A DNA stretch of 64,000 nt from Escherichia coli 042. GTDB lineage: Bacteria; Pseudomonadota; Gammaproteobacteria; Enterobacterales; Enterobacteriaceae. The notes beneath the pieces were generated by a model. The model saw only the letters and a list, made by a program, of their open reading frames with translations, was not told where the DNA came from and searched no databases. Both the position numbers and the translations under genes were made by a program. This document shows positions 1 to 58,444 of the stretch, piece by piece; positions within the stretch are counted from its first letter, which is position 1, and every line of letters begins with the position of its first letter. The stretch lies in assembly GCF_000027125.1 (NCBI RefSeq), contig NC_017626.1, one strand, 5' to 3'.

Positions 1-248
1 TCACGCTCAATGGCGTTGACCTGGTCGCATTTTTCCTTCGACAGTTTCATATTGGGAAAAACGGTTTTTCCATCCACCACTGTGGCACCCCGACAGATGG
101 TCCATATGCCAGAACCATCGCGGTATGCCATTGTGTGGTTACCTTCTTTTTCGTCCAGAAACTGGTCAAGTATCTGAGGAGCAGATGCGCCAGCACCAAT
201 CAGCGCCAGAACGGCAGCCGACAGGCCGTATCTGATTTTTGTGTTCAT
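1..248 (-). CDS. rrrQ: Prophage lysozyme (SAR-type endolysin), 5' part only; gene runs off the window
   Basis: Own translation of the minus strand from ATG 248..246 gives MNTKIRYGLSAAVLALIGAGASAPQILDQFLDEKEGNHTMAYRDGSGIWTICRGAT..., recognised as RrrQ. ATGA overlap with the ydfR stop. Confidence 0.8.
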   Translation of the reverse strand, partial: MNTKIRYGLSAAVLALIGAGASAPQILDQFLDEKEGNHTMAYRDGSGIWTICRGATVVDGKTVFPNMKLSKEKCDQVNAIER

Positions 249-556
249 AGATATTTATGATGAGGACGCTCGTGCTTATTGGCAGGATTTTCAATCTTAA
301 AGGAGTACTGATGCTGCAGATAAGACTCAACTTTTTCTGACAATTTTTCTGCTACTTCCAGGAAGACTTGCCGGACGCTCCTTCTGGCTGCTGCCTCATA
401 AAACTCCAGCGCAGCTCCTTCAACACGGTCCATGGCGACATCTAGGTCAAAAATTTCACCGTCAAAGCGTTCTTTGTCCTGTAAGGCTACAGTTACCGTA
501 ACTTTATTCTCAAAATTACGGACTCCTTTCACAACCAGTTCATAGTCTTGAGTCAT
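245..556 (-). CDS. ydfR: Qin prophage protein YdfR (103 aa)
   Basis: ORF-track protein MTQDYELVVKGVRNF... recognised; sits between holin and lysozyme. Confidence 0.8.
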   Translation of the reverse strand: MTQDYELVVKGVRNFENKVTVTVALQDKERFDGEIFDLDVAMDRVEGAALEFYEAAARRSVRQVFLEVAEKLSEKVESYLQHQYSFKIENPANKHERPHHKYL

Positions 557-560
557 TGGA

Positions 561-776
561 TTACTCTCCTCTCGCAGCCTTACGCCTGTCTTCTTTAATC
601 TTGAAATAAAGATTTGTCAGATACGTCAGCAGGCCAAAAACCAGGCTACCCAGCACACCGATTGCAGCCCACTGTGACGGAGTTACTTTATCGAGTAACT
701 GCAATGCCCAGAAACCAGCATTACCCGCCGATGTGCCATAGGCAACACCTGTTGTTAACTTATCCATTGATTTCAT
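561..776 (-). CDS. essQ: Phage 21 S-type holin homologue (71 aa from MKSMDKL)
   Basis: ORF 561..851 trimmed to ATG 776..774. Two hydrophobic segments and a charged C-terminus; lies upstream of ydfR/lysozyme. Confidence 0.8.
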
Positions 777-995
777 ATCCTCACCCCGATGTACACGGAT
801 GGTGCAATATGTTTGAAAAGATCGGAGTCTACGGGGTAGTTTTGACAGCACACGTTGTTCTCAACGGCGCTAAAAAAACATACACATTAAAAATGTGGGT
901 AATTATTTTGAAAGAAAGTCATATATAAAATAATAATACGAGAAATGTTTTCATATTTAGTGTACTGTATACGGCCATTTATACAGGAAAAGCCT

Positions 996-1166
996 ATGTC
1001 AGAACGTAAAAACTCAAAATCACGCCGTAATTATCTCGTTAAATGTTCCTGCCCAAACTGCACCCAAGAGTCAGAACACAGTTTTTCAAGAGTACAAAAA
1101 GGTGCCCTTTTGATCTGCCCTCATTGCAACAAAGTATTCCAGACAAATCTTAAAGCTGTAGCCTGA
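996..1166 (+). CDS. Small zinc-ribbon protein (56 aa, CxxC...CxxC); possibly the K-12 Qin small protein ynfU
   Basis: ORF 945..1166 trimmed to ATG 996 behind AGGAA. Sequence MSERKNSKSRRNYLVKCSCPNCTQ...ICPHCNKVF has two CxxC pairs. Confidence 0.55.
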   Translation: MSERKNSKSRRNYLVKCSCPNCTQESEHSFSRVQKGALLICPHCNKVFQTNLKAVA

Positions 1167-1529
1167 TTGATTTTATTAGTAACAAGTATTTTTTATATTT
1201 TAATAATATATTTAAAGCAGATAATAAAAAACCCGCCTGAGCGGGTTTGAGATTGTGGTGCTTTTTGTGGGAGTCATCCACTTACGCACTTTGTTTTGCC
1301 ATGCCAGCAGTTAGCTTCTGCTGTAAAACTATTCATGCAGCAAACCTGCACTTCACCACAATGGTTAGCATACTTTTCCTGATTAAGATTTTGCCAAATA
1401 TGCTAGCCATTGTTTCATGTATTGGACCTCCTTACTTTTTATTAAAGAGATCCAATATTCACTACTCTGTCCGTATCTCTACTCAGGCATCAGCCTTCTT
1501 CGTTATCGTATACAGACGAGCGATGAATT

Positions 1530-1745
1530 TTAATCAGTAATGATGACATTTGCTGCTGCAGGACCTTTAGCACCACTCTCTATAGAGAAGGTAACCTTTT
1601 GACCTTCAAATAAGGTTCGATAATTATCATTCTGAATCGCAGAAAAATGCACAAACACATCTTTACTACCATCAACAGGAGAAATAAAGCCGAAACCTTT
1701 ATCAGCGTTAAACCATTTTACTAAACCAGTCATTTTATTTGACAT
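1530..1745 (-). CDS. cspB: Cold-shock protein CspB
   Basis: [23 protein letters not shown]... is a full-length CSD protein with the RNP1 motif KGFGFI. Confidence 0.9.
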
Positions 1746-2045
1746 TCTACATTCCTTAACTTGAGCCTTTCGGCATAAATGGTTTGCATAACAGAAACGA
1801 CTTCGTACTTAATTGGAGAGACTCAAAGAAGGAATAAGTGAATAACACCTGAAATGAGAACTGCTTTAGTAAACTACTTCGTATATCGTCTGTTCTTCAA
1901 ACCGACGCAATCATTAACGCATAGTTGAACATATGAAGCAATGTTTATTTTAGACATCCAGCCATCTTCAACCCCATCAAAAAACTATAGCTTTCTTCAG
2001 GAACGTGTGTATAGTGCGCCAAGTTATCAGTATTAAGGAATTTTT

Positions 2046-2258
2046 TTGTCCCGTAAAATGACAGGAATTGTCAAAACCTTTGACGGCAAAAGCGGCAAGG
2101 GTCTTATCACCCCATCCGATGGTCGTATCGATGTCCAGCTTCATGTTTCAGCGCTCAATCTCCGCGATGCAGAAGAAATTACCACCGGATTACGCGTGGA
2201 ATTTTGCCGGATAAATGGTCTGCGTGGCCCTTCAGCTGCCAATGTTTACCTTTCATGA
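2046..2258 (+). CDS. cspF: Cold-shock-like protein (CspF by synteny)
   Basis: [23 protein letters not shown]... is a CSD family member, divergent from cspB as in Qin. Confidence 0.75.
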
Positions 2259-2312
2259 GCTATATTAAAGCTTTAATTTCAGGCCCCATCGGATCACACA
2301 TGGAGAGTTTTT

Positions 2313-2402
2313 ATGAATAACCCCGTCTGTCTTGATGACTGGTTGATTGGCTTTAAAAGCTTATGCTGTACTTTGGCCGTAATAGCTCTGCTAATAATAT
2401 AA
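2313..2402 (+). CDS. Candidate 29-aa hydrophobic peptide
   Basis: GGAGAG RBS 6 nt before ATG 2313. [29 protein letters not shown], stop TAA 2400-2402. Too short for the ORF track. Confidence 0.25.
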
Positions 2403-2679
2403 TAAGCAGACTCATTGTGTTTAGGGACATTGTACTGGAAGAAAACATTTTAAACATCAGGCAAATAACCAAGTCACCAGCTAAATAATAAGTTAACAGA
2501 CATGAGTCCCGGGATGAGATTCAACATTACCATTGCCCCATTTAAAGCACAAAACCCGCTCATCAGCGGGTTTTCTACTTTTTCTTAACGTCGGGTATAC
2601 AAAGCCCATCGTTGAAAAAATTTTATCCATATTTTTTGAAAAATGCAAACATCATGTCGCCATCTTCAGCAAAAATCAT

Positions 2680-3432
2680 TTATCTCGTCACCTTCCTCAA
2701 TTGCGCTTCCGCGTATGCTTCTTCCTGCCAGCACTTTGTTACCAGTTTACCAATGACGTCCGCATACCCCTTATACCACTGATAATCGGTCAGGTCTGGT
2801 ACCAGCTTCTGGACATGACGTCGTGCCAGCGTGGTCGGTAAACGACTAAACCGGTTTCCATTACAACGCCCACAAATCTTATATACCGGTACGCCATGAA
2901 ACCGGGTTCTTTTTTCATCCAGAACAATCCCTTTACCCTTACACCCTCTGCACGCTGTGCTGGCTTCGCCCTTACCATGGCAATGCTGACATAGTTCCTT
3001 CACCCATTCTTCCTTGATTACAGATTCCCCGCGTCTGTAGTGTTTCACCACTTCGCGCAATACATTATAAAATCCCGTACCTGAACAATGCTCACAGCGA
3101 GCCTTACTTGCCGCAGACCTGGAGTAATCAGCAAAGGCAAAACTCACGAGGTAAGGAATAATCTGTAACCGGATTTCTTCACTCAATTTGTTCAATGTCG
3201 GGTTATCCAGTGCCATCGCGTAATTTAGCAGGCCTTCAATCGCAAACTGAGGGTCCTGAACACCAACTTTTGCCAGAAATAAGGCCAACCCAAGTGGTGC
3301 TTTCGACTGCACCATCCCCTGCGCTGCCATTACATCCGTAATTGTTAAACAACCGGTGCCTGTCGCTGGAGCGTCATCGCTCAATTTTGGAGATTTTGGG
3401 GAGTAATATTTTGGTAAGGCTTCAAGGTTCAT
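2680..3432 (-). CDS. quuQ: Late-gene antiterminator Q homologue (250 aa from MNLEALPKYY)
   Basis: ORF 2680..3462 trimmed. Multiple CxxC zinc motifs (CEHCSGTG, CQHCHGKG, CRGCKGKG, CGRCNG) typical of this Q family. Confidence 0.85.
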   Translation of the reverse strand: MNLEALPKYYSPKSPKLSDDAPATGTGCLTITDVMAAQGMVQSKAPLGLALFLAKVGVQDPQFAIEGLLNYAMALDNPTLNKLSEEIRLQIIPYLVSFAFADYSRSAASKARCEHCSGTGFYNVLREVVKHYRRGESVIKEEWVKELCQHCHGKGEASTACRGCKGKGIVLDEKRTRFHGVPVYKICGRCNGNRFSRLPTTLARRHVQKLVPDLTDYQWYKGYADVIGKLVTKCWQEEAYAEAQLRKVTR

Positions 3433-39290: not shown

Positions 39291-39620
39291 TCAGGCAAGT
39301 TTCACCATGATCATTCCAGCCAACAGCAAGACCAGGCCAATCCAGCCTTTACGATTTAACCGTTGACCAAACAAGATCCAACCTGCGGCTAACGTGGCGG
39401 CAATACCAAACCCGCCCCACAATGCATAAGCGACAGACAAGTCGATCCCTTTAACGGCCTGAGAAAGCGCACTAAAGGCAGCCAGCACCGCCGACAGGGA
39501 GAGCAAGCCAAATATTTTGCGACGAAAGCCGTCAGAAAATTTCAAAAAGACGTTAGCAACGATTTCCAGCACGATTGCCAATGCCAGCCAGGCGGCGTGA
39601 ACCCATTCAAACTGCGCCAT
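39291..39620 (-). CDS. mdtI: SMR-family spermidine exporter subunit MdtI
   Basis: [35 protein letters not shown]..., 109 aa. Confidence 0.95.
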
Positions 39621-39972
39621 GGTTCACCTCCAGTTCAGGTTTACGCGCTTTACGGGTACCTGATTTGATCAATACAATCCCGGCCACCAGGGTGGTTAAC
39701 CCGGCAATTTTCATCAGCGATAAACTTTCGTCGAATAACAAAACGCTAAACAAGGTAATAAATAAAATACCGATACCTTCCCACAGCGCATAAGCCACGC
39801 CTAAGGCGATTTTTTTAACGGCGAAAGAGAGAAATATATACGACAGAGAAATCATCACCAGCATTAAAATAAAGCCGCCATTTCCCTCACTGACGCTCGC
39901 CCATTTCATGGACAGCGTACCGGTAATTTCTGTAGCAATAGCCAGGCCTAATAAAATCCAATAAATATACAT
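39607..39972 (-). CDS. mdtJ: SMR-family spermidine exporter subunit MdtJ
   Basis: [38 protein letters not shown]..., 121 aa, overlaps the mdtI start. Confidence 0.95.
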
Positions 39973-40383
39973 TGTCCTTCTCCTGCAAGAGAATTATTTT
40001 AATTTTCGCTTAATTCAGCGAAACCAAAGTAAAGTGGTCAAGCCCCGCGCTTAGCGCAAGCTTTGGCAGAAGAAAGGACTAAAGCGCGTTGCGCCAGTGC
40101 TGCTCACCTACGAGCAAGATAGTGGATGAGGTACGAAGATGGGTAAATGTAGAAAATAACGTCCTGAACAAATTGTCCATAATATTACAATTATCCGCAG
40201 TGTTGCTTCTCGTCATCGCGGATGATAATTGTCCTCGGTAGTTGAACACGCCTGATTTGTATCATAGCTTAAGAATTAACTCAAAATATTTTCACTTCTT
40301 TACCTGAGCGGTTTGATTTTCGTTATGATGACGGAGCGAAAAAGACATTATTATTAGCAAAGGAAGAAAAAACGGGGACAAGC

Positions 40384-40530
40384 ATGGCAAAGCCGATCAT
40401 CACGCTCAATGGCCTAAAAATCGTCATTATGTTGGGAATGCTGGTCATTATTCTCTGCGGTATCCGTTTTGCCGCCGAGATCATCGTGCCGTTTATTCTC
40501 GCATTATTTATTGCTGTTATATATAACTAA
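40384..40530 (+). pseudogene. tqsA: tqsA (AI-2 exporter, ydgG) 5' fragment: 46 native codons then 2 element-derived codons and TAA
   Basis: ATG 40384. [46 protein letters not shown] then YN-stop. The reading frame resumes at 51547. Confidence 0.9.
40512..40520 (+). repeat. attL core (TGCTGTTAT; flanking similarity ...TAAC)
   Basis: ATTGCTGTTATaTaTAAC at the left junction versus AATGCTGTTATtCtTAAC at the right junction. Confidence 0.8.
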
Positions 40531-40594
40531 TTTCACTTAACGCATTGATTTAATTAAATGATTTGCACTACAAAAAGTGCCATAAATCGCAAAA

Positions 40595-40616
40595 TGACTA
40601 CACCAGTGACTACACC
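40595..40616 (+). repeat. Tandem TGACTACACC x2 (arm-type integrase site candidate), left arm
   Basis: TGACTACACCAGTGACTACACC is identical to 51396-51417. Similarity continues for ~35 more bp (..TCGgTGCAC.., ..ACAACGTGgAACA..). Confidence 0.6.
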
Positions 40617-40934
40617 GTTCGGTGCACTGTATGAAACAACGTGGAACAAATAGACACAAGAAATATACAGGCGGGTCATCTTTCCAGGGGGAAGCGCGCT
40701 AATTCATGAGGGGCGTTAATGTTGATATGGGGATCCCCATAACGGGGCTACCGGATTTTTTTTCCGGTTAACTGTTAATCAGGCTGGTGGGCTTTACCTG
40801 TTTTGTAGGAGTGGTCATTATGACCATTCAGACAATGACCTTAATCAGAACTTTTCGCTAAAAAATGACGTTGGTCACGTCGTCCGGAAAGCACAAAATC
40901 CCGTCAATTTTTAATTAACGGTTAAACCGTCTTT

Positions 40935-40980
40935 TGTCACGGCGTGTCACTGGTTGTCACTCTCCGTCACGGTATGTCGC
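40935..40980 (+). repeat. Five TGTCAC-type hexamers at exact 10-bp phasing
   Basis: TGTCAC 40935, TGTCAC 40945, TGTCAC 40955, CGTCAC 40965, TGTCGC 40975. Lies directly 3' of the 93-aa gene. Confidence 0.7.
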
Positions 40981-40986
40981 TACTCG

Positions 40987-41268
40987 TTAACGCCGTAACC
41001 GCTCCGGCTTCTTCCAGTGGTACGTAATTTTCTCCGTTTCCCGATACAGTGCCACGCGGCGATTGTAGGCCAGCATTTCAAGAACGCGGATCCGTATGTT
41101 GCGCATATCCACATCATTAAGCTGGATACCATCACGGCGCATCACCTCAGCAACCACACGCGCGTAATTTTCGGCGGTCACGCTGTCCGGCTGCGTGGCC
41201 TGTTCGTCATGCTGCTGGCTGATTCCGGTAACGCGGCGGATTAATCCCAGTAGTTCGGCTTCTGTCAT
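40987..41268 (-). CDS. Hypothetical island protein (93 aa)
   Basis: ORF 40987..41466 trimmed to ATG 41268 behind a GGGGG RBS. The upstream part of the long ORF is just translation of the cos repeat. MTEAELLGLIRRVTGISQQHDEQATQPDSVTAENYARVVAEVMRRDGIQLNDVDMRNIRIRVLEMLAYNRRVALYRETEKITYHWKKPERLRR. Confidence 0.55.
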   Translation of the reverse strand: MTEAELLGLIRRVTGISQQHDEQATQPDSVTAENYARVVAEVMRRDGIQLNDVDMRNIRIRVLEMLAYNRRVALYRETEKITYHWKKPERLRR

Positions 41269-41301
41269 TGTGCCCCCATCGCTCTGATAGTCTGGTGTCG
41301 T

Positions 41302-41365
41302 CGGGTCCTTCCTGGAATTATGGCCCGTTACGGGGCGGCGACCTCGCGCGTTTTCACTATTTATG
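41302..41365 (+). other. Lambda-type cos site, copy 1 (cosN GGGCGGCGACCT at 41333-41344)
   Basis: CGGGTCCTTCCTGGAATTATGGCCCGTTACG|GGGCGGCGACCT|CGCGCGTTTTCACTATTTATG. This closely matches the recalled lambda right end ..GTTACG, the 12-nt cohesive end, and left-end nt 13-33. Confidence 0.8.
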
Positions 41366-41382
41366 AAAATTTTTCGGGATCC

Positions 41383-41479
41383 ATGTCCGGTTTCTCTGCA
41401 AGTTAACCATATGAAAAATATAAAAACATGCTTTCCATGAACCGGACATGCGCAAAAAACAGACACTAAAACCGGACAT
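41383..41479. promoter_or_regulatory. cosB-like array: three copies of ATGTCCGGTT (one forward, two inverted) around an AT-rich spacer
   Basis: ATGTCCGGTT 41383-41392; AACCGGACAT 41440-41449 and 41470-41479. AT-rich 41397-41430 sits between the first and second. Confidence 0.6.
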
Positions 41480-41547: not shown

Positions 41548-41982
41548 TTACTGTTCTGTATCGGCTGATTGCTCCATGCTGGCACGGCGAACGCTTATGG
41601 CATGACGCCACCCAGCCAGAAAGCCAGCCATTTTATTTCGTGCCTTGCTCACATCTTCCGGTGAATAGCCGTAAATCTGCAAACCTTCATCAAATCGATG
41701 TTCTGTTTCTTCACTGGAGTACTCGTCACGCTCAGATGAAAGCAGCCTGGCAAACATAATTTTTTCCAGCGCACTGGTTTCTACGTGATATCTGATGGTC
41801 TCAAGACGGCTTTTACCTGAAGACCAAAGCAATGTATGCCCGATGTGATAACCGCCAGACTTTCCGCGATCCGCATTAAGATACGGCATCCCCTGTTTGG
41901 TCCATGCGCGAATAGTGGTTCTGTTAACCTTGAAATGTTCAGCTATTTCCTGCTGACTTACAAAACAAGCTTTATCAATCAT
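41548..41982 (-). CDS. Nu1-like small-terminase-type DNA-binding protein (144 aa): N-terminal winged HTH, unrelated C-terminus
   Basis: FVSQQEIAEHFKVNRTTIRAWTKQGMPYL aligns by eye with lambda Nu1 VNKKQLADIFGASIRTIQNWQEQGMPVL. The gene starts ~70 bp from cos copy 2, as Nu1 follows cos in lambda. Confidence 0.7.
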   Translation of the reverse strand: MIDKACFVSQQEIAEHFKVNRTTIRAWTKQGMPYLNADRGKSGGYHIGHTLLWSSGKSRLETIRYHVETSALEKIMFARLLSSERDEYSSEETEHRFDEGLQIYGYSPEDVSKARNKMAGFLAGWRHAISVRRASMEQSADTEQ

Positions 41983-42050
41983 AATGTTACCTTAACTGCA
42001 TGGTTAAATATTAATCAAGTGGTGGTGGTGTCACCTTCACGGAAAAACGT

Positions 42051-42114
42051 CATAAATAGCGAAAACCCGCGAGGTCGCCGCCCCGTAACGGGCCATAATT
42101 CCAGGAAGGACCCG
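42051..42114 (-). other. Lambda-type cos site, copy 2, inverted (cosN complement AGGTCGCCGCCC at 42072-42083)
   Basis: The reverse complement is identical to copy 1 except 2 positions. Its CGCGGGTTTTCGCTATTTATGA matches the recalled lambda left end exactly. Confidence 0.8.
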
Positions 42115-42143: not shown

Positions 42144-42557
42144 TCAGATGTTTTTCAGTATGCGATCGATGTCGCCGTCATCGCCCTGGTTTCTGCCATC
42201 GTATGCCATGCCAGCTGATACGGCTTGCGGGCTGTGCATGTCCATAAAGTTTTCAAAGGCTGCGGTAAGTTCCGGCGCAACCTTCGGACGTTCCTGCTCT
42301 ATGGTCATGCTAAGGATGCTTTTAGCCGTACCAACATCGATACAAGGCACGTTTGCCATTGCACGCAACAGCGGCTGATAGTCTTTATGCTCATGAAGCG
42401 CCATAATCGCATCAGCGCGCGGCTTGTCCTGCTCTTCCAGTTTGTTTAGTTGATGTACGGCCTCATAGGTTGATAAACCTCTGTCAGCCATTGCCCGCGC
42501 TTCGACTTTAAATTTACTCGCCAGCGGTAGCGTCATGATGCTTTCATTCGTTGCCAT
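42144..42557 (-). CDS. Hypothetical island morphogenesis-operon protein (137 aa)
   Basis: Last gene of the capsid operon. MATNESIMTLPLASKFKVEARAMADRGLSTYEAVHQLNKLEEQDKPRADAIMALHEHKDY... No family recognised. Confidence 0.6.
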   Translation of the reverse strand: MATNESIMTLPLASKFKVEARAMADRGLSTYEAVHQLNKLEEQDKPRADAIMALHEHKDYQPLLRAMANVPCIDVGTAKSILSMTIEQERPKVAPELTAAFENFMDMHSPQAVSAGMAYDGRNQGDDGDIDRILKNI

Positions 42558-42569
42558 CGTTCCCCCTGC

Positions 42570-42905
42570 TTATCGGGCCAGCGGCTGAACGGATACGCCG
42601 GAACCCGCAAAGGCGGCGCATTTTTTCGCATCGGTGTCGACGCTCTCAGGCCAGTTAACGGCGGCAATATTGAATATCCCCGTCTTGTAACACTGTGCTG
42701 ATTTCTGCTTTGACGTGTCCACAGGGTACGAGGTCAGATAAACAGCCTTGCCAGATTCCTGACCATCCCACGGCTTAAACTCGCCATTGTCTGCCAGCAT
42801 CAGCGGGGTAAATTCCTGAATAACGCCAGCATCAGCGGCAAAATGTACCAACGTCGTGGATACCTGCTGACTGCCTGCAAATAACTCAATGTATGGAGTG
42901 TCCAT
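42570..42905 (-). CDS. Head decoration protein, lambda gpD family (111 aa)
   Basis: TPLMLADNGEFKPWDG..., YKTGIFNIAAVNWPE..., KKCAAFAGSGVSVQP parallel lambda gpD TPLMLDTSSRKLVAWDG, YKSGTFRYEDVLWPE, KKRTAFAGTAISIV (recalled). Confidence 0.8.
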   Translation of the reverse strand: MDTPYIELFAGSQQVSTTLVHFAADAGVIQEFTPLMLADNGEFKPWDGQESGKAVYLTSYPVDTSKQKSAQCYKTGIFNIAAVNWPESVDTDAKKCAAFAGSGVSVQPLAR

Positions 42906-44781: not shown

Positions 44782-45054
44782 TTAGCTGTCCTGGTAATTG
44801 CGCCATATTTCATCACCAGCACCATCTATACCCATTTCGGCATAAGTGCGATCGACTGCCTTTTTCAGGTCTCCGAAATTATCCGGCGGCTCCGGTGCCC
44901 TCTGTGCCTTCCTTGAACATTCCAGCCGTCGCATCGTGATGTGATGCCGTTCCTTGTCTGTCTCCACCAGCTGCATGACTTCACCCCATCGCGCCGCCGC
45001 CCTCCGGTAAAAGCCTTTCGCCTCCAGTTCCTCCGCTATGCGGTCATGTACCAT
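44782..45054 (-). CDS. PerC/Pch-family transcriptional activator (90 aa)
   Basis: ORF 44782..45174 trimmed to ATG 45054 behind GAGGGGG. MVHDRIAEELEAKGFYRRAAARWGEVMQLVETDKERHHITMRRLEC... parallels the PerC/Pch core ..LEEAGLWRRAATRWL.V....TDEERDWI.RRR..C (recalled). Confidence 0.7.
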   Translation of the reverse strand: MVHDRIAEELEAKGFYRRAAARWGEVMQLVETDKERHHITMRRLECSRKAQRAPEPPDNFGDLKKAVDRTYAEMGIDGAGDEIWRNYQDS

Positions 45055-45064
45055 CGTCACCCCC

Positions 45065-45475
45065 TCAGAACGAAATATCATCACCGTAAGGGTCATCGCC
45101 TCCCGCTGGTGGCTGATTACCCTGTGTGCCTGTGGTTTTGCGTCTGTTCCCGCCTGGACGTGCCGCGCGGGCACTGATTACGCTGTCTGCGATAACCTGC
45201 CAGCCCTGCCGCGTTTCTCCGTTCTGTCCGGTCCACTGGCTTACCTGCATCGTGCCGGATACGCTGGCAACATCGCCTTTTTGATGTTTAGCCAGGAAGT
45301 CGGCCTGTTTGCCAAATGCGATGACCGATAACCATAACGTCGCCTGTCCGTCCTGTGCCTGGCTGCATGGCAAAGATACCGCCATACGCGCCAGCGTCAT
45401 CGGTGTGCCCTTGCTGGTCTGTTTTACCTGCGGGTCGTCCACCAGCCGCCCGTAAGCGGCTATCTGTGCCGTCAT
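45065..45475 (-). CDS. ssb: Single-stranded DNA-binding protein (OB fold, Gly/Pro-rich linker, acidic tip DDISF)
   Basis: MTAQIAAYGRLVDDPQVKQTSKGTPMTLARMAV...GNQPPAGGDDPYGDDISF. The C-terminal tip resembles the SSB DDDIPF client-binding tail. Confidence 0.75.
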   Translation of the reverse strand: MTAQIAAYGRLVDDPQVKQTSKGTPMTLARMAVSLPCSQAQDGQATLWLSVIAFGKQADFLAKHQKGDVASVSGTMQVSQWTGQNGETRQGWQVIADSVISARAARPGGNRRKTTGTQGNQPPAGGDDPYGDDISF

Positions 45476-45734: not shown

Positions 45735-45925
45735 TCTCACTTTTTCGCCTCACTTTTTCAAGCGTCTCACTTCGTCGCAGTTGGGATTTTCGGTTTTTCT
45801 ATGTGTGTGTTTCATAAGTATTTTTTTACCCCTCACTTTTGAGGATGTATACAGGTCGAAAAGTGAGGGAGAGCGGGCTAATTTTGGCCCTCTTTCTATC
45901 CCCCTCGCTTTTGCTCCTCACTTTT
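45735..45925. repeat. Iteron cluster CTCACTTTT (6 direct or near-direct copies plus 1 inverted): putative island replication origin
   Basis: Direct copies at 45736, 45749, 45766 (CTCACTTCG), 45832, 45904 (CTCGCTTTT), 45917. Inverted copy at 45858-45869. AT-rich stretch 45781-45830. Directly 3' of the rep gene. Confidence 0.65.
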
Positions 45926-47324
45926 ATAGCGGCGCTACATCATCCCCATCGATACGAATAACCCCATCTTTTTCCAGCTTGTACAGCCAGCGCCGGAAGT
46001 TTTTCATTTCATACCCCAGCTTTTTCATGTCATCACGTAACAGCGGGATCGTGCACTTGTCGCCGTTCTGTGTGCGTGAACGGATGCACCCCCATAGCGC
46101 GGTATGGTTTTCCGTCTTGTTCCCTGCCTCCTCGATGCGCTCCAGTTCAACAGGAGGGCGCGGATCATCCACCACCACCAGCGACGTGATTAATTCACCG
46201 TCAGCGTCGGTAAAAAGCTCCACCACGCGTAAGTCATATGCGGCTTCTTTGAGTTCCTCCGCGTCCTTCATTTTGGTGCATGAGATAACCAGCGCTTCGC
46301 TTCCTGCGTCCTCCCTGCGTATCCGGTATTCAGCATCCAGCGAAGCACGAAATGCACTGGAACCGCGCGCGCCTTTCGTCTCATCCTTGCCGGAATGGTG
46401 AACCACCAGCACCGTGGCCCCTGTGCGTCGTTTCAGTTCGTCACAACCACGGATAAACGCCCCCATATCACGGGAATCATTTTCATCATTCCCACCAAAG
46501 CAACGCGCCAGCGTATCCAGAATAATCATGCGTACAGGTTTACCCGTTTCCCGCTCCACCTGACGGGCAGCGATAACCATTTCATCAACATCAAGCGGGG
46601 CAGCCGGAAAGATGGGGCGGTTTACCAGATACAGATTTTTCACCTGCTCATCGTGCACAACCTCCCAGGCTTTTACACGACGCGGAACACCTATACCGCC
46701 TTCACCAACCACATAGAGAACCGCACCATGTGCAACCCTGCGGCCTCCCCACTGGCGACCAGTGGCAACATGGCACGCCCACGATCCAGCAAGGAATGAT
46801 TTATAGGACCCGCTAGCCCCGTATATGCTGCATAGCGATACCGCCGGAATAATCCCCTTAACCACGTAATCCAGTTGCGTGTCGTATCCGGTAGATCCAA
46901 CGCTCATCGGTAGCGTGGTTTTTCGCTGGTGTTTTTTTTCTTCCGCCGGCTCTTTCCCGCGCACCCGTTCCAGGTATTCGCGCCAGTTCTCCCGCATATG
47001 GCTGTGCATCCCTTCGGGGTAATAATTCGCATCAGTTACACCCGCCGCCGCCAGCTTGTGCGCAATGGCATTAATATTTGATGGCCTGATGTGGCCTGCC
47101 TTGTACAGCCGGACACAATAGCGCCCCTCGTCGATGATTCTCAGGTCTGCCAGTTCATCCAGTTGATCATCAGCCAGCACAACGGGAGGCACATTATCGC
47201 CAGCCAGTCGCCCGTCCTGTTCCTGCCACTGTTTCGCATGTGCCCAGGCATCACTACCCGCAAAAATAATGACTTCGGTCATCTTGTCGTAAGGCTGTTT
47301 TTTTAAGTTCGGTGCGCTTTTCAT
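45924..47324 (-). CDS. Replication initiator ATPase (RecA/RepA-like AAA_25-type core, C-terminal wHTH), 466 aa
   Basis: Walker A GASGSYKS, Walker B MIILDTLARCFGG, VLVVHHSGKDETKGARGSSA sensor region. C-terminal basic wHTH-like tail. Confidence 0.8.
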   Translation of the reverse strand: MKSAPNLKKQPYDKMTEVIIFAGSDAWAHAKQWQEQDGRLAGDNVPPVVLADDQLDELADLRIIDEGRYCVRLYKAGHIRPSNINAIAHKLAAAGVTDANYYPEGMHSHMRENWREYLERVRGKEPAEEKKHQRKTTLPMSVGSTGYDTQLDYVVKGIIPAVSLCSIYGASGSYKSFLAGSWACHVATGRQWGGRRVAHGAVLYVVGEGGIGVPRRVKAWEVVHDEQVKNLYLVNRPIFPAAPLDVDEMVIAARQVERETGKPVRMIILDTLARCFGGNDENDSRDMGAFIRGCDELKRRTGATVLVVHHSGKDETKGARGSSAFRASLDAEYRIRREDAGSEALVISCTKMKDAEELKEAAYDLRVVELFTDADGELITSLVVVDDPRPPVELERIEEAGNKTENHTALWGCIRSRTQNGDKCTIPLLRDDMKKLGYEMKNFRRWLYKLEKDGVIRIDGDDVAPL

Positions 47325-47620
47325 TTCTTGCCCCTGAATCCGTTAACCATGGTTTTCAGCTTCTGGATGTTTGCCCGTGCCCTGGCGTTGCTGGTGGGCA
47401 CGTTATGCGGCGCGGTCTGTACCAGAGAAAAATCACGCCGGAACTGATAAACAGGCATCACGCAATCATATTCGTAACCTTCACGGCGGTAGGTTACGCG
47501 CCGTTCTTCCACGTCCTTAATCATTACCGTGCCGCCGTACTGGTCGCGGTAAATATCACCGCGCGTAAATTTAGGGTGAGTGTTGCCACTGGCAGTTAAG
47601 CCAGAATATTTAAGTTTCAT
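47321..47620 (-). CDS. DUF4222-like small protein (99 aa)
   Basis: ..GDIYRDQYGGTVMIKDVEERRVTYRREGYEYDCVMPVYQFRRDFSLV resembles the DUF4222 pattern as I recall it. ATGA overlap with rep. Confidence 0.5.
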   Translation of the reverse strand: MKLKYSGLTASGNTHPKFTRGDIYRDQYGGTVMIKDVEERRVTYRREGYEYDCVMPVYQFRRDFSLVQTAPHNVPTSNARARANIQKLKTMVNGFRGKK

Positions 47621-48711: not shown

Positions 48712-48784
48712 AACGGCTCCTAGTTTACGTTGTTGGTTAGAAGCCCTGCGAGTGGTAACGACACTTGCGGGGCTTTGTCTTTTC
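48703..48784 (+). ncRNA. Candidate ~80-nt antisense RNA across the RBS/start of the first early gene
   Basis: Extended -10 TGgTATATG (48688-48696) upstream. Then a 14-bp stem (48741-48754 / 48762-48775, two G-U pairs only on the plus-strand RNA) followed by TGTCTTTTC. Confidence 0.3.
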
Positions 48785-48802
48785 ATCGATTACCTTGATA
48801 AA

Positions 48803-48884
48803 GGTGTCAGCCACTATATTAGTAACGGGTGTCAGCCACGTCAATAGTGTTTTTCCGTTTTCTTGTGTGTATACTGTCAGCCAC
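48803..48884. promoter_or_regulatory. Divergent switch region: three GTCAGCCAC operators interleaved with face-to-face promoters
   Basis: GGTGTCAGCCAC at 48803-48814 and 48828-48839; CTGTCAGCCAC at 48874-48884. Minus-strand promoter TTGACG (48844..48839)-17 nt-TAATAT (48821..48816). Plus-strand TATACT at 48870-48875. Confidence 0.6.
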
Positions 48885-48905
48885 CTAATAACGAGGAAAT
48901 CAGAT

Positions 48906-49085
48906 ATGGCAACAAAAGCAGTTAATGCAAAATCCAAAAAGCTTGAGGCTCGAGTACCACACGCAATAGCTGATGCTGTAGAAAATTTAAAGGAAGATGG
49001 CGAAAGTACAGGGCAATTTATCGTTTCGGCACTTGAAGGCGAGATCAAACGCCGCCAGCGCCGCAAGGCCAAAGAATCAGAATAA
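48906..49085 (+). CDS. Ribbon-helix-helix-like small DNA-binding protein (59 aa): candidate island repressor
   Basis: ORF 48765..49085 trimmed to ATG 48906 behind AGGAA. MATKAVNAKSKKLEARVPHAIADAVENLKEDGESTGQFIVSALEGEIKRRQRRKAKESE has a beta-strand/helix/helix pattern typical of Arc/CopG proteins. Confidence 0.55.
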   Translation: MATKAVNAKSKKLEARVPHAIADAVENLKEDGESTGQFIVSALEGEIKRRQRRKAKESE

Positions 49086-49127
49086 TCACTATCAGCGCCG
49101 TGGTGTGAGGTATTACGGCGCATTGCT

Positions 49128-49316
49128 ATGCAGGACAACACAATGACCGATAAAGAATTGACCAAAACATTATCACCGGCACGGAAAAGACGGCGCAGAA
49201 AGATAGAGCATGAATCAGAAAGATTCGCACCATGTGCTTTTGCCCTTGAGCAATTCCTTAAAGAGTACAGGGAAAAGCGCTCATTGCAGGTATGGCAACG
49301 AACTGAACCAGACTGA
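49128..49316 (+). CDS. Possible second small gene of the plus-strand unit (62 aa, basic)
   Basis: ORF-track MQDNTMTDKELTKTLSPARKRRRRKIEHESERFAPCAFALEQFLKEYREKRSLQVWQRTEPD. Weak RBS, so may instead be non-coding. Confidence 0.3.
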   Translation: MQDNTMTDKELTKTLSPARKRRRRKIEHESERFAPCAFALEQFLKEYREKRSLQVWQRTEPD

Positions 49317-49411
49317 TTGCATTGCCCACCAGCCTGATAGCGGCTATCATCCCCGTGCTTATGTTTGGGATCACACACACAAACGGCGCAGCGGGTTATC
49401 TGTTCAGAAAG

Positions 49412-49439
49412 GCGGCTCCATTTCGGGGCCGCTTTTTTT
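49412..49439 (+). terminator. Rho-independent terminator of the plus-strand unit
   Basis: GCGGCTCC-ATTTC-GGGGCCGC followed by TTTTTTT. Confidence 0.65.
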
Positions 49440-49585
49440 ATACCTGAAAAACCCCAATTTTGTTGTTTTTCAGTTTCACCAGGGCGAACGAATCCCCGCC
49501 CACGTTCTGGCGTATATTCAATCTTCATGGTTATAGCTCTGTGTTCAGATGATTGATGTGTGGCGGCTGCGTGCCGCCAGCGTGA

Positions 49586-49774
49586 TTAATGAACTGCCTT
49601 GCAGCTATCCTTCCAGGCCAGAACCTCGGATAAAGACCAGCCAACGGAACGACCGCCAAGTTTACGACGTGATGGGAATTGTCCGGCCTTTTCCAGGCGG
49701 TAGCGACACGTACGGCTAAGGCCGGTTAGTTTTTCGCATTCTTTTTCACGTATAAACCGATCAGTGCTTAACAC
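49586..49774 (-). CDS. alpA: AlpA-family HTH regulator/excisionase (62 aa, GTG start)
   Basis: Strong GGGGGGG RBS. ..DRFIREKECEKLTGLSRTCRYRLEKAGQFPSRRKLGGRSVGWSLSEVLAWKD is the AlpA/MerR-like HTH signature. Confidence 0.85.
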   Translation of the reverse strand: MLSTDRFIREKECEKLTGLSRTCRYRLEKAGQFPSRRKLGGRSVGWSLSEVLAWKDSCKAVH

Positions 49775-50140: not shown

Positions 50141-51370
50141 TTATTTTCTTCTGGCTACTGGTAGCGTGGTTACGTTTTCATGTGTTCCCGCCAGTATCCC
50201 TAACCGCTCCGTCCACATATCCAGCGCATTGCGTTTAGCATCCAGATAACGGGAATGATTATAAACTCGCTGCATTCCTGGCATCTGGTGGCCTGTAAGC
50301 TGCTCCACGACATGCGGATCAACGCCTAAATCGTTCAGCATGGTTGTAAAGGTGCGCCGGATGTCATGCAGTGACCAGTGAGGATGATTAAGCCTCCTGT
50401 GCGCTAATCTTCCATACTGCGATACGCTGGCCTCCTGTTTCACTTCCCCCAGCAATAAGCCCGTGTGCCTGTTCTGCTCCACCAGCTGCGTGACGAACGG
50501 CAGGATCGCTTCCGGTATGGGCCGGAATATTGCGACCTTCGTTTTGCTGTGCTCCTTCGGAACGGTCCATAGCATTTCCGTAAAATCCCACTCCCCGATC
50601 TCCGATAACCTCAGTTCTACCGTTCTGGCTCCGAAGACAATCAGGAGGCGGATTAACGCGACGTAGTAAGGGGAGAATATTTTTTTGTCCAGTGCCTGCA
50701 ATAATTCGCCAAGTTCTTTGTTACTTAAGACACGTTCGCTTATATCCGGTTTTTTCCCAACGTCCGCCACGTTCAGATCGTCCAGAACGTTGCTGATTGC
50801 ATAGCGCCGCCTACGGCAGAACTTAAGCGCCTGTTTGCACGCCTGTAGCACGAATCCGGCAGTAACAGGCGTTCGCTTTGCCACCTGGTCAAAACAGGCC
50901 AGCCAGTGCCGTAGCTCGCATTTATCCAGCGGCATAGCACCAATCTGCTGTATTACGTGATTATTAAGTCGCCTTTTCAGGGCGATATAATCCACGCGGT
51001 TTTCCTTTACGTAATACTCAAGCCAGTAGGTGAGCGCATCGCCAACCGTTACCGGCTTTAACGCTTCCTGTACGGTGTAATTAAGCTCATGACGTGGATT
51101 TTTCCCCTCTGCCAGCCATGCGCGACACTGGGCGGCTTTTTCCCTGGCTGATTTCAGGCTCAGATCAGGATAACTTCCCAGCTTAATGCGTTCGGGTCGT
51201 GTCTCCCTTCCCGTTCCGGCCCTGTATGTGAAATACCAGGTCAATTTCCCTGATGTTAAATATTTCACGCTCAGGTTTCCGCCATCACTATAAAACGTGT
51301 TTTTCTCCGCTGGCTTACCATGAAGTTTCCTTAGCAAGGTATCGCTCAGTTTGTTCATTGCTCTGCTCAC
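50141..51370 (-). CDS. int: P4-type tyrosine integrase (DUF4102 arm-binding N-terminus), 409 aa, GTG start behind GAGGGGG
   Basis: N-terminus ..LSDTLLRKLHGKPAEKNTFYSDGGNLSVKYLTSGKLTWYFTYR... Catalytic ARTVELRLSE (R), HDIRRTFTT (H..R), GHQMPGMQRVYNHSRY (H..Y). Confidence 0.9.
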   Translation of the reverse strand: MSRAMNKLSDTLLRKLHGKPAEKNTFYSDGGNLSVKYLTSGKLTWYFTYRAGTGRETRPERIKLGSYPDLSLKSAREKAAQCRAWLAEGKNPRHELNYTVQEALKPVTVGDALTYWLEYYVKENRVDYIALKRRLNNHVIQQIGAMPLDKCELRHWLACFDQVAKRTPVTAGFVLQACKQALKFCRRRRYAISNVLDDLNVADVGKKPDISERVLSNKELGELLQALDKKIFSPYYVALIRLLIVFGARTVELRLSEIGEWDFTEMLWTVPKEHSKTKVAIFRPIPEAILPFVTQLVEQNRHTGLLLGEVKQEASVSQYGRLAHRRLNHPHWSLHDIRRTFTTMLNDLGVDPHVVEQLTGHQMPGMQRVYNHSRYLDAKRNALDMWTERLGILAGTHENVTTLPVARRK

Positions 51371-51395
51371 GTTTTACCCCCTCTTTACGAAAAAG

Positions 51396-51417
51396 TGACT
51401 ACACCAGTGACTACACC
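51396..51417 (+). repeat. Tandem TGACTACACC x2 (arm-type site candidate), right arm, just upstream of int
   Basis: Identical to 40595-40616. Confidence 0.6.
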
Positions 51418-51545
51418 GATCGTTGCACAAAGGGCTACAACGTGAAACAAGCTGGAACAAGGAAAATCACAAATCTGTTGATAATCAAAAACATAATGCA
51501 CAGCCTGAAACATTATGAAACAGCAAAAAACACCAAATGATAAAA

Positions 51546-51554
51546 TGCTGTTAT
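51546..51554 (+). repeat. attR core (TGCTGTTAT)
   Basis: Direct repeat of 40512-40520. The tqsA reading frame resumes as [14 protein letters not shown]. Confidence 0.8.
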
Positions 51555-52452
51555 TCTTAACCCGCTGGTGCAACACATGGTCCGCTGGCGAGTGCCGCGT
51601 GTACTGGCGGTGTCGATTTTGATGACCATCATCGTGATGGCGATGGTGTTGCTGTTAGCTTATCTGGGTTCCGCGCTCAACGAGTTGACGCGGACGTTAC
51701 CGCAATATCGCAACTCTATTATGACGCCGCTGCAAGCGATTGAACCGTTGTTGCAACGCGTAGGGATTGATGTCTCAGTTGACCAACTGGCGCATTACAT
51801 TGATCCGAACGCGGCGATGACGTTGCTCACCAACTTATTGACGCAGTTATCTAATGCCATGTCATCAATATTTTTATTGCTGCTGACGGTGCTGTTTATG
51901 CTGCTCGAAGTGCCACAATTGCCCGGAAAATTTCAGCAAATGATGGCGCGTCCGGTTGAAGGGATGGCGGCGATTCAGCGTGCGATTGACAGTGTTTCTC
52001 ATTATCTGGTGCTGAAAACAGCCATCAGCATCATCACCGGCCTGGTCGCCTGGGCGATGCTCGCCGCACTCGATGTTCGCTTCGCTTTTGTCTGGGGATT
52101 GCTGGCCTTTGCGCTTAATTACATCCCTAATATTGGTTCAGTTCTCGCAGCAATTCCCCCTATCGCTCAGGTACTGGTGTTTAATGGCTTCTACGAAGCG
52201 TTGTTGGTGCTGGCGGGATATCTGCTGATTAATCTGGTCTTCGGCAATATTCTGGAGCCGCGCATCATGGGACGTGGGCTGGGGCTTTCGACATTGGTGG
52301 TATTTTTGTCGTTGATTTTTTGGGGATGGTTGTTAGGACCGGTGGGTATGCTGCTTTCCGTGCCGTTGACAATTATTGTCAAAATTGCGCTTGAACAAAC
52401 AGCGGGAGGTCAAAGCATCGCCGTTCTGTTAAGCGATCTCAATAAAGAGTGA
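51547..52452 (+). pseudogene. tqsA: tqsA 3' portion (codons ~44-344), separated from its start by the island
   Basis: Frame GCT GTT ATT CTT AAC CCG CTG GTG... = [30 protein letters not shown]... through LSDLNKE-stop. Confidence 0.9.
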
Positions 52453-57061: not shown

Positions 57062-58444
57062 ATGGAAAAGAAACTGGGACTGAGCGCACTCACCGCGCTG
57101 GTATTAAGCTCAATGCTGGGCGCGGGTGTTTTCAGTCTGCCGCAAAATATGGCGGCAGTTGCCAGCCCGGCAGCACTGCTCATCGGCTGGGGCATTACTG
57201 GCGCTGGCATTTTATTGCTGGCCTTTGCCATGCTGATCCTCACGCGCATTCGTCCCGAACTTGACGGCGGTATCTTTACCTATGCCCGCGAAGGGTTTGG
57301 CGAGCTAATCGGCTTTTGTTCCGCATGGGGATACTGGCTGTGCGCAGTCATCGCCAACGTCTCCTATCTGGTGATCGTTTTTTCCGCGTTAAGCTTTTTT
57401 ACGGACACGCCGGAATTGCGCCTGTTTGGCGATGGTAATACCTGGCAATCGATCCTCGGTGCATCGGCTTTATTGTGGATTGTTCACTTTTTGATCCTGC
57501 GCGGAGTGCAAACCGCTGCCAGCATTAACCTGGTGGCGACACTGGCAAAATTGTTGCCGCTGGGTCTGTTTGTTGTGCTGGCGATGATGATGTTCAAACT
57601 GGATACCTTCAAGCTCGACTTCACCGGACTTGCACTTGGCGTACCCGTTTGGGAACAGGTGAAAAACACCATGCTGATCACCCTGTGGGTTTTCATTGGT
57701 GTGGAAGGTGCCGTGGTTGTTTCTGCGCGTGCGCGTAATAAACGTGATGTTGGCAAAGCGACACTGCTGGCGGTTCTCTCCGCTCTGGGCGTTTACTTGC
57801 TGGTAACGCTGCTTTCGCTGGGCGTGGTGGCACGTCCTGAACTGGCTGAAATTCGTAACCCGTCAATGGCCGGTCTGATGGTGGAAATGATGGGACCGTG
57901 GGGCGAAATCATCATCGCTGCCGGTTTGATCGTTTCCGTTTGCGGCGCGTACTTAAGCTGGACCATCATGGCGGCAGAAGTTCCGTTCCTGGCTGCCACT
58001 CATAAAGCATTCCCACGCATTTTTGCGCGCCAGAACGCACAAGCTGCGCCATCCGCCTCACTGTGGTTGACCAACATCTGCGTGCAAATTTGTCTGGTAC
58101 TCATCTGGCTGACCGGTTCCGATTACAACACGTTGCTGACCATCGCCTCAGAAATGATTCTGGTGCCCTATTTCCTGGTCGGCGCGTTCTTGCTGAAAAT
58201 CGCAACCCGTCCACTGCATAAAGCGGTAGGTGTCGGTGCCTGCATTTATGGCTTATGGTTATTGTACGCCTCTGGTCCAATGCACTTGCTGTTATCCGTT
58301 GTTCTGTATGCGCCGGGGCTGCTGGTTTTCCTGTATGCGCGTAAAACGCATATACATGATAACGTACTGAACCGTCAGGAAATGGTGCTAATTGGCATGC
58401 TGTTAATTGCCTCAGTTCCGGCGACCTGGATGCTGGTGGGATAA
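57062..58444 (+). CDS. ydgI: APC-family arginine:ornithine antiporter homologue YdgI (ArcD)
   Basis: MEKKLGLSALTALVLSSMLGAGVFSLPQNMAAVASPAALLIGW..., 460 aa. Confidence 0.9.
   Translation: MEKKLGLSALTALVLSSMLGAGVFSLPQNMAAVASPAALLIGWGITGAGILLLAFAMLILTRIRPELDGGIFTYAREGFGELIGFCSAWGYWLCAVIANVSYLVIVFSALSFFTDTPELRLFGDGNTWQSILGASALLWIVHFLILRGVQTAASINLVATLAKLLPLGLFVVLAMMMFKLDTFKLDFTGLALGVPVWEQVKNTMLITLWVFIGVEGAVVVSARARNKRDVGKATLLAVLSALGVYLLVTLLSLGVVARPELAEIRNPSMAGLMVEMMGPWGEIIIAAGLIVSVCGAYLSWTIMAAEVPFLAATHKAFPRIFARQNAQAAPSASLWLTNICVQICLVLIWLTGSDYNTLLTIASEMILVPYFLVGAFLLKIATRPLHKAVGVGACIYGLWLLYASGPMHLLLSVVLYAPGLLVFLYARKTHIHDNVLNRQEMVLIGMLLIASVPATWMLVG

Follow-up and report, generated by a model that had tools for sequence, protein, structure and literature searches.

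In this work, we analysed a window of 64,000 nucleotides of Escherichia coli 042 DNA (NC_017626.1) and found that an island splits the gene tqsA, and that recombination within the 9-bp core repeated at the two island ends regenerates the gene exactly. Judged from its sequence, the island is an ordinary enterobacterial PICI with a P4-type integrase. Our best explanation, to which we give a probability of about 80%, is that a PICI matching the published EcCI042 uses tqsA as a landing site and that the repair of the gene is a by-product; what we infer in it is the loss of TqsA function, the arm-site role of the repeats, the dependence on a helper phage and the lack of any regulatory role. The first-pass annotation of this DNA had proposed an inactivating insertion with precise restoration, and also a coupling of satellite induction to quorum-signal export. 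Its structural claims are right, and the regulatory part is a speculation already published by others; the case is real, ordinary and already known.

Both junctions, read directly in the window, are as that annotation had given them. In the tqsA frame the left junction is GCT GTT ATA TAT AAC TAA, and the open reading frame 40384-40530 encodes 48 aa, made up of 46 native tqsA codons followed by Tyr-Asn and a stop from island DNA. The right junction is TGA TAA AAT GCT GTT ATT CTT AAC CCG, from which the tqsA frame continues to its normal stop at 52452; with TGA TAA ahead of the 3' fragment, the gene is split without an in-frame fusion, also as claimed. The core TGCTGTTAT occupies tqsA codons 44-46, and the spacing from core to core is 11,034 bp, which is the island length. 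A third copy of TGCTGTTAT at 58287 was rejected as a chance match, the occurrence being at chance level for a 9-mer in 64 kb. The case for split and repair rests on the exactness of the rebuilt gene, the 9-mer repeat alone not being the evidence. When 40384-40520 was joined to 51555-52452 in silico, a check that the annotation had recommended, an intact tqsA of 1,035 nt was obtained, comprising an open reading frame of 344 aa and a stop. The rebuilt TqsA is identical to the E. coli TqsA of PDB 7NB6 chain A at 343 of 344 residues (aligned over 1-344; I108 vs L108), and strain 7/2 has an uninterrupted tqsA that matches the 600-nt reconstructed attB at 100% identity. The features of the locus are collected in Table 1.

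Table 1 Features of the tqsA island and its junctions (window coordinates).
Feature	Position	Strand	Basis
tqsA 5' piece, truncated	40384..40530	+	junction reading; PGAP labels the equivalent in related genomes a pseudogene missing the C-terminus
att core TGCTGTTAT, left copy, 9 bp	40512..40520	.	equals EcCI042 core ATAACAGCA reverse-complemented
76-nt direct repeat, left, tandem TGACTACACC x2	40591..40666	+	probable arm-type integrase sites (inferred)
Lambda-type cos site (cosQ-cosN GGGCGGCGACCT), then CCGGACAT repeats	41302..41379	+	lambda cos match
Rpp-type small-terminase homologue, 144 aa, N-terminal HTH, R21-T22	41548..41982	-	phrog_57 TerS; HTH families
Second cos site, opposite in orientation to the left one	42037..42114	-	lambda cos match
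Scaffold-like ORF	42144-42557	-	PHROG match
Lambda gpD-like head decoration protein	42570..42905	-	Pfam HDPD E = 5e-18; phrog_49
Lambda gpE-like major capsid protein, 351 aa	42918..43973	-	Pfam Phage_cap_E E = 5.5e-50; phrog_29
PerC-family activator, accessory gene	44782..45174	-	Pfam PerC E = 1.2e-42
Single-stranded DNA-binding protein	45065..45475	-	Pfam SSB E = 1.7e-16
Three 17-nt iterons TTTTnCnCCTCACTTTT, 83-85 bp spacing, candidate origin	45741..45925	.	directly 3' of helicase gene
RepA-like replicative helicase, 466 aa	45924..47324	-	Pfam AAA_25 E = 2.3e-43; phrog_2850
DUF4222 protein	47321-47620	-	Pfam
AlpA-family regulator	49586..49774	-	Pfam Phage_AlpA E = 5.4e-17
Tyrosine integrase, 409 aa, intact, Arm-DNA-bind_3 + Phage_integrase	50141..51370	-	domain matches
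76-nt direct repeat, right, tandem TGACTACACC x2	51392..51467	+	probable arm-type integrase sites (inferred)
att core TGCTGTTAT, right copy, 9 bp	51546..51554	.	direct repeat of left core
tqsA 3' piece, codons 44-344	51547..52452	+	TGA TAA in frame before it; without promoter (simple scan) or start codon

Excision at this core occurs, because the predicted attP junction (right end, core, left end) is present in two independent metagenome contigs. The IMG/VR contig IMGVR_UViG_3300045988_152974 has 11,098 nt with a terminal direct repeat of 119 nt, which indicates that it assembled circularly with a unit of 10,979 nt. In the second, ENA contig CYGL01000683.1 (11,271 nt), attP is bordered by island sequence left and right, and a chromosomal flank is absent. 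These contigs are read more simply as a free circle or replicative concatemer than as a tandem island array.

The island is assigned to the PICIs because it combines an integrase, AlpA, a helicase, an SSB, capsid and decoration proteins, an Rpp homologue and two cos sites with the lack of portal, TerL, tail and lysis genes. Its size falls in the range of about 8-12 kb typical of PICIs, with a short repeat at the ends and int adjoining the right junction; alpA lies next to int, and the assigned genes are all on the minus strand, which gives the unidirectional order of the class. The initiator is the island's own, and the iterons 3' of its gene make a candidate replication origin by their position, PICI origins having been described 3' of the initiator gene. 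In the Pfam and PHROG scans of the island ORFs, no portal, large terminase, tail or lysis family was matched, and the biggest ORFs are the helicase, Int, the capsid protein and one of 263 aa without a family. This last ORF (48737-49528) lies between alpA and an Icd-like gene; PGAP annotates the equivalent stretch in relatives as an 'icd-like' pseudogene, which is tied to the 263-aa ORF by position only.

The packaging signals are of the lambdoid type and accompany a putative TerS-derived Rpp. Two cosN matches were observed against 0.02 expected by chance, and the inverted cos pair, 657 bp apart, brackets the Rpp-like gene, an arrangement that recurs in related loci L001 and L002. Two functional cos sites have also been described in EcCICFT073. 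The Rpp homologue is 97% identical to the allele of L001, and its R21-T22 is conserved in RppA/B/C. The CCGGACAT repeats after the left cos resemble a distinct cosB. At the island ends, the copies of the 76-nt repeat are 76% identical to each other and lie 70-150 bp inside the ends. The motif TGACTACACC has four exact copies, all within these two repeats, a count reached by no shuffle, and it probably represents arm-type integrase-binding sites; since one 76-nt repeat lies inside each island end, the repeats flank the core on both sides in attP.

Other assignments were considered and rejected. For a P4-like satellite, psu-delta-sid, alpha primase and cnr/eps are absent from the Pfam and PHROG scans, and the island has its att site within a protein gene, where P4-like elements usually use tRNA genes; the integrase fold Arm-DNA-bind_3 alone is shared. 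For a cf-PICI, the island has only the capsid, the decoration protein and the scaffold-like ORF, with no portal or TerL and no unassigned ORF large enough. The 78-nt inverted repeat 41302-41379/42037-42114, which matches thousands of E. coli genomes, could be taken for an IS or REP element interrupting a packaging gene. That reading was dropped because the sequence is lambda-type cosQ-cosN, the pair is kept in related islands, and it has already been described for EcCICFT073.

Compared with its relatives, the island is a mosaic, in which the cargo is mostly of the ycfD-phoQ type and the int-attP segment and the Rpp allele are of the tqsA type. The closest cargo is that of EcCIRM12579 (O55:H7/O157:H7, intergenic ycfD(roxA)-phoQ site), with 97.9% identity over about 89% of the island, and the best tqsA-sited match in the E. 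coli collection reaches 91.7% over 87%; in the E. coli collection searched, none of the complete genomes carries the exact combination. It shares with EcCICFT073 and EcCIRM12579 the pair of cos sites, homologues of capsid and decoration proteins, AlpA and a gene order running in one direction. However, those two have the core ATATGTCC at the intergenic ycfD(roxA)-phoQ site and arm repeats of the form ACTACACC-ATTA-ACTACACC, whereas the tqsA island has TGCTGTTAT at an intragenic site and ACTACACC-AGTG-ACTACACC. The integrase of the EcCIRM12579 type (L002 12282-13511) is 92% identical to the one at 50141-51370, and all of its 32 aa differences fall in residues 5-294, residues 295-409 being identical. 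The gene between the cos sites also differs, the EcCIRM12579-type allele being unrelated to the Rpp allele of the tqsA island, which matches instead that of another tqsA-sited island; in the latter, the integrase is 99% identical and a primase replaces the helicase. On the basis of these cargo, integrase, core, arm and Rpp comparisons with tqsA-sited and ycfD-phoQ islands, the int-attP module acts as a cohesive unit that sets the targeting to tqsA, and the cargo recombines freely. Two integrases that are 92% identical and use different sites offer a compact natural pair for the mapping of site specificity.

The first-pass annotation had asked for a survey of occupied versus empty tqsA sites, and we carried it out in 5,426 complete E. 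coli genomes, scoring a site as empty when the 600-nt attB was found at ≥80% coverage. Empty attB was present in 5,166 of the 5,426 genomes (~95%). Occupied sites were counted by the left junction (242 genomes), the right junction (246) and the whole locus (249), and amount to about 245 genomes or ~4.5%. A probe for the int-attP module, made up of the attP arm and core plus the 5' portion of int, hit 241 genomes at ≥95% identity, and 18 of 19 hits sampled evenly down the ranking sit at tqsA, in O157:H7, atypical EPEC, UPEC, and water and animal isolates. At least 9 integrase accessions were found at tqsA, and different replication modules accompany 99%-identical integrases there. When integrases were scanned in one genome per species, the only match was a Shigella flexneri integrase (92% identical), and that scan gave no evidence for use of the tqsA site across genera. 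According to Table S1 of Fillol-Salom et al. 2018 (PMC6092414), the att sites of other E. coli PICIs are intergenic, with one exception in an IS110 transposase gene, which bears out the earlier remark that tqsA is an unusual target among E. coli PICIs. The remaining one of the 19 sampled hits is in strain 94-3024 (locus L009, NZ_CP009106.2, ~1890-1905), where a tqsA-type int-attP module with 95% DNA identity is inserted in caiT at the core TGTTTTTAT, a 7/9 match to the tqsA core, and caiT is left as a pseudogene; here the integrase either missed its usual target or has changed its specificity.

This island, with its site and core, has been on record since 2018. Fillol-Salom et al. (ISME J, Table S1, PMC6092414) list EcCI042 of E. 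coli 042 at FN554766.1 1832521-1843554 with 11,034 bp, the core ATAACAGCA, tqsA as att gene, and rdgR and perC as accessory genes, together with EcCIK1516, a second PICI at the same tqsA site. Compared through this published table, the island in the window lies in the same gene and has the same length, perC, and a core of which ATAACAGCA is the reverse complement, so that by site, core, length and shared perC it matches EcCI042. tqsA already appears in Bobay et al. 2013 among the core genes that integration disrupts. The idea that tqsA loses its function on integration and regains it on excision was published in 2020 by Mageeney et al. (NAR, PMC7192596), where tqsA is among 19 candidates newly proposed for "regulated gene integrity". 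The supplement entries concerned give Eco33.11.tqsA, Eco282.16.tqsA and Eco557.15.tqsA as disrupting the UPF0118/AI-2E domain, and an 11-kb E. coli island is among the tqsA cases. As far as the passages on tqsA go, their argument is the same as the one made here, namely that the element disrupts tqsA without restoring it and that excision would reactivate the gene; it is likewise purely computational, and the tqsA element is not named as a PICI in those passages. None of the literature searched reports experimental work on EcCI042 or on what the tqsA interruption does to the phenotype.

Taken together, our preferred explanation can be stated as follows. The PICI's own P4-type tyrosine integrase would insert the island into the 9-bp core at tqsA codons 44-46, cutting the promoter and the first 46 codons off from the other 298. 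Excision mediated by Int at the same core would yield an intact tqsA and a circular island with attP. By analogy with EcCICFT073, a lambdoid helper phage would prompt AlpA to induce the island, which would then replicate from its own helicase and origin; its cos sites would serve for packaging, aided by the Rpp protein. The most likely reason for the choice of tqsA is that it offers a highly conserved yet dispensable, hence safe, landing site, and the rebuilding of the gene would be a by-product of site-specific recombination with no regulatory device behind it.

The split tqsA is most probably a null allele. In the cryo-EM structure of TqsA, the pentamer is held mainly by H1 (Thr7-Phe29), which makes its contacts on the cytoplasmic face and dips only partly into the membrane, and H2 (Ala31-Trp57) runs in-plane; with the split falling after residue 46, the 3' piece lacks H1 and about 60% of H2. 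The first-pass annotation was right that the N-terminus is lost, but its "first transmembrane segment" does not describe H1, and the remainder that it gave as 300 codons without a promoter counts 298, the loss of the promoter agreeing with our scan. The loss of function is argued from these helices, the stops at the junctions, the signals looked for at the 3' fragment, the direction of int and the PGAP labels. According to the opposite reading, the gene is still functional, with the 3' fragment transcribed from the island, translated from GTG 51568 or ATG 51577, and yielding a shortened working transporter. These two starts do lie in frame, 14 and 23 nt beyond the core, and the frame of 294 codons from them is open. 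However, inspection by eye showed no Shine-Dalgarno sequence before either of them, a simple, crude scan of both strands of 51200-51700 gave no sigma-70-like promoter, and crude scans for promoters of either orientation at the left and right junctions, weak as negatives, were also empty. Moreover, int, the nearest island gene, is transcribed away from the fragment, H1 is the chief contact that keeps the pentamer together, and PGAP calls both tqsA halves pseudogenes in every related genome fetched, the 3' piece being labelled as missing its N-terminus. A working fragment is therefore extremely improbable. It is also very unlikely that the copy in strain 042 is a fixed, decayed remnant unable to excise, with tqsA a permanent pseudogene in this strain. 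The 263-aa ORF without a family, the icd-like pseudogene that relatives have at the corresponding place and the mosaic make-up of the island would suit such a remnant, but Int, AlpA, the helicase, Rpp, the two cos sites, the two cores and the four arm-type repeats are all intact, and near-identical int-attP modules are seen excised in metagenomes.

The reading that goes furthest beyond a landing site is regulated gene integrity or active lysogeny, in which the island would excise non-lethally under some condition, TqsA would be made, and the island would re-integrate or be lost, so that AI-2 export, biofilm and motility are toggled at the level of the cell or the population. The interruption is intragenic and exactly reversible: the coding sequence is split after codon 46, with inactivity as the probable result, and its exact restoration is seen in the full open reading frame given by the join, in the identical empty sites and in the attP of two contigs. 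Many independent islands use the same site, Mageeney 2020 (PMC7192596) lists tqsA as a candidate on the same grounds in its passages on the gene, and a tqsA deletion is reported (Herzberg 2006) to alter biofilm, motility and intracellular AI-2. In the host gene that is interrupted and exactly rebuilt, the case also resembles Listeria phi10403S in comK, SpyCIM1 at mutL and skin in sigK, as these are presented in the corresponding passages of PMC7192596. However, the comK, mutL and sigK switches have a defined physiological trigger and a surviving cell that uses the gene, and nothing similar is known for the tqsA island, for which no condition-dependent excision is known. In the EcCICFT073 family of PICIs, AlpA drives induction in response to the helper phage, and the outcome is packaging and lysis; because PICI induction ends in lysis, a restored tqsA in the donor cell would have no lasting effect. 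Another parallel is provided by the helper-embedded PICIs, for which Mageeney et al. 2023 (NAR Genom Bioinform, PMC10111431) describe integration that interrupts a gene, excision that restores it and a consequence for timing. There, however, integration hits one of the helper prophage's own late genes, so that excision and use of the gene fall within the same lytic programme, whereas tqsA is a housekeeping gene of the host that is not known to be linked to the phage cycle. Against a switch there are also the intact gene in about 95% of genomes and the three TqsA paralogues of E. coli, with AI-2 still called a probable substrate.

The state of the gene in other genomes bears on the same choice. 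Among 13 occupied loci including the window, examined through PGAP notes and two translations and too few for a rate, the 3' fragment is open in 11, a result that the switch reading can claim and that is expected equally of a maintained gene and of a recent insertion. Since open 3' fragments do not separate recent insertion from selection, a switch is possible but unsupported. The occupied genomes DETEC-P793 and UPEC-455U, which carry the same integrase accession, share a nonsense mutation S298* in the 3' fragment (L008 2502-3407 and L012 1396-2301), so excision there would not restore TqsA, and restorability is not kept everywhere; in this lineage decay of the split gene has begun. In the island-free strain CFSAN004176 (locus L007, NZ_CP014583.1, ~2780-2785), tqsA has a large internal deletion of about 630 bp (an annotation estimate), which starts about 10 bp left of the att core and leaves no island remnant visible at the joint, and this allele reads as a natural tqsA null. 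A conserved but dispensable landing site fits S298*, the CFSAN004176 deletion, the helper-phage cycle and the paralogues, and we consider regulation by gene integrity to be very unlikely. Its most specific form is highly improbable as well, namely that in the ~4.5% of E. coli with the island, loss of TqsA increases AI-2 inside the cell and alters biofilm and motility, and that rare helper-independent excision, by giving tqsA+ segregants, makes the island a phase switch for AI-2 export in the population. If a switch were nevertheless real, it would be the first in which a phage satellite, as distinct from a prophage, controls a host signalling gene by active lysogeny, and AI-2 export and biofilm would become tied to helper-phage ecology. 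Both states of the site are common (about 245 occupied, 5,166 empty) and thus provide a natural pair with which the published gene-integrity proposal for tqsA can be tested.

Two smaller observations concern the surroundings of the junctions. At the right end, an ORF on the plus strand (51253-51540) overlaps the start of int, is in the frame of the tqsA 3' piece and ends at the TGA TAA just ahead of it; PGAP annotates a 60-aa hypothetical protein at this place in relatives, and the ORF is probably spurious. At the left end (39291-41466, minus strand), the island genes read leftward toward the tqsA 5' fragment, to which they are antisense, and toward the co-oriented mdtJI spermidine-efflux genes. 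Terminator-like hairpins are present on the minus strand at 40867-40921, and transcription of the island could conceivably run on into mdtJI.
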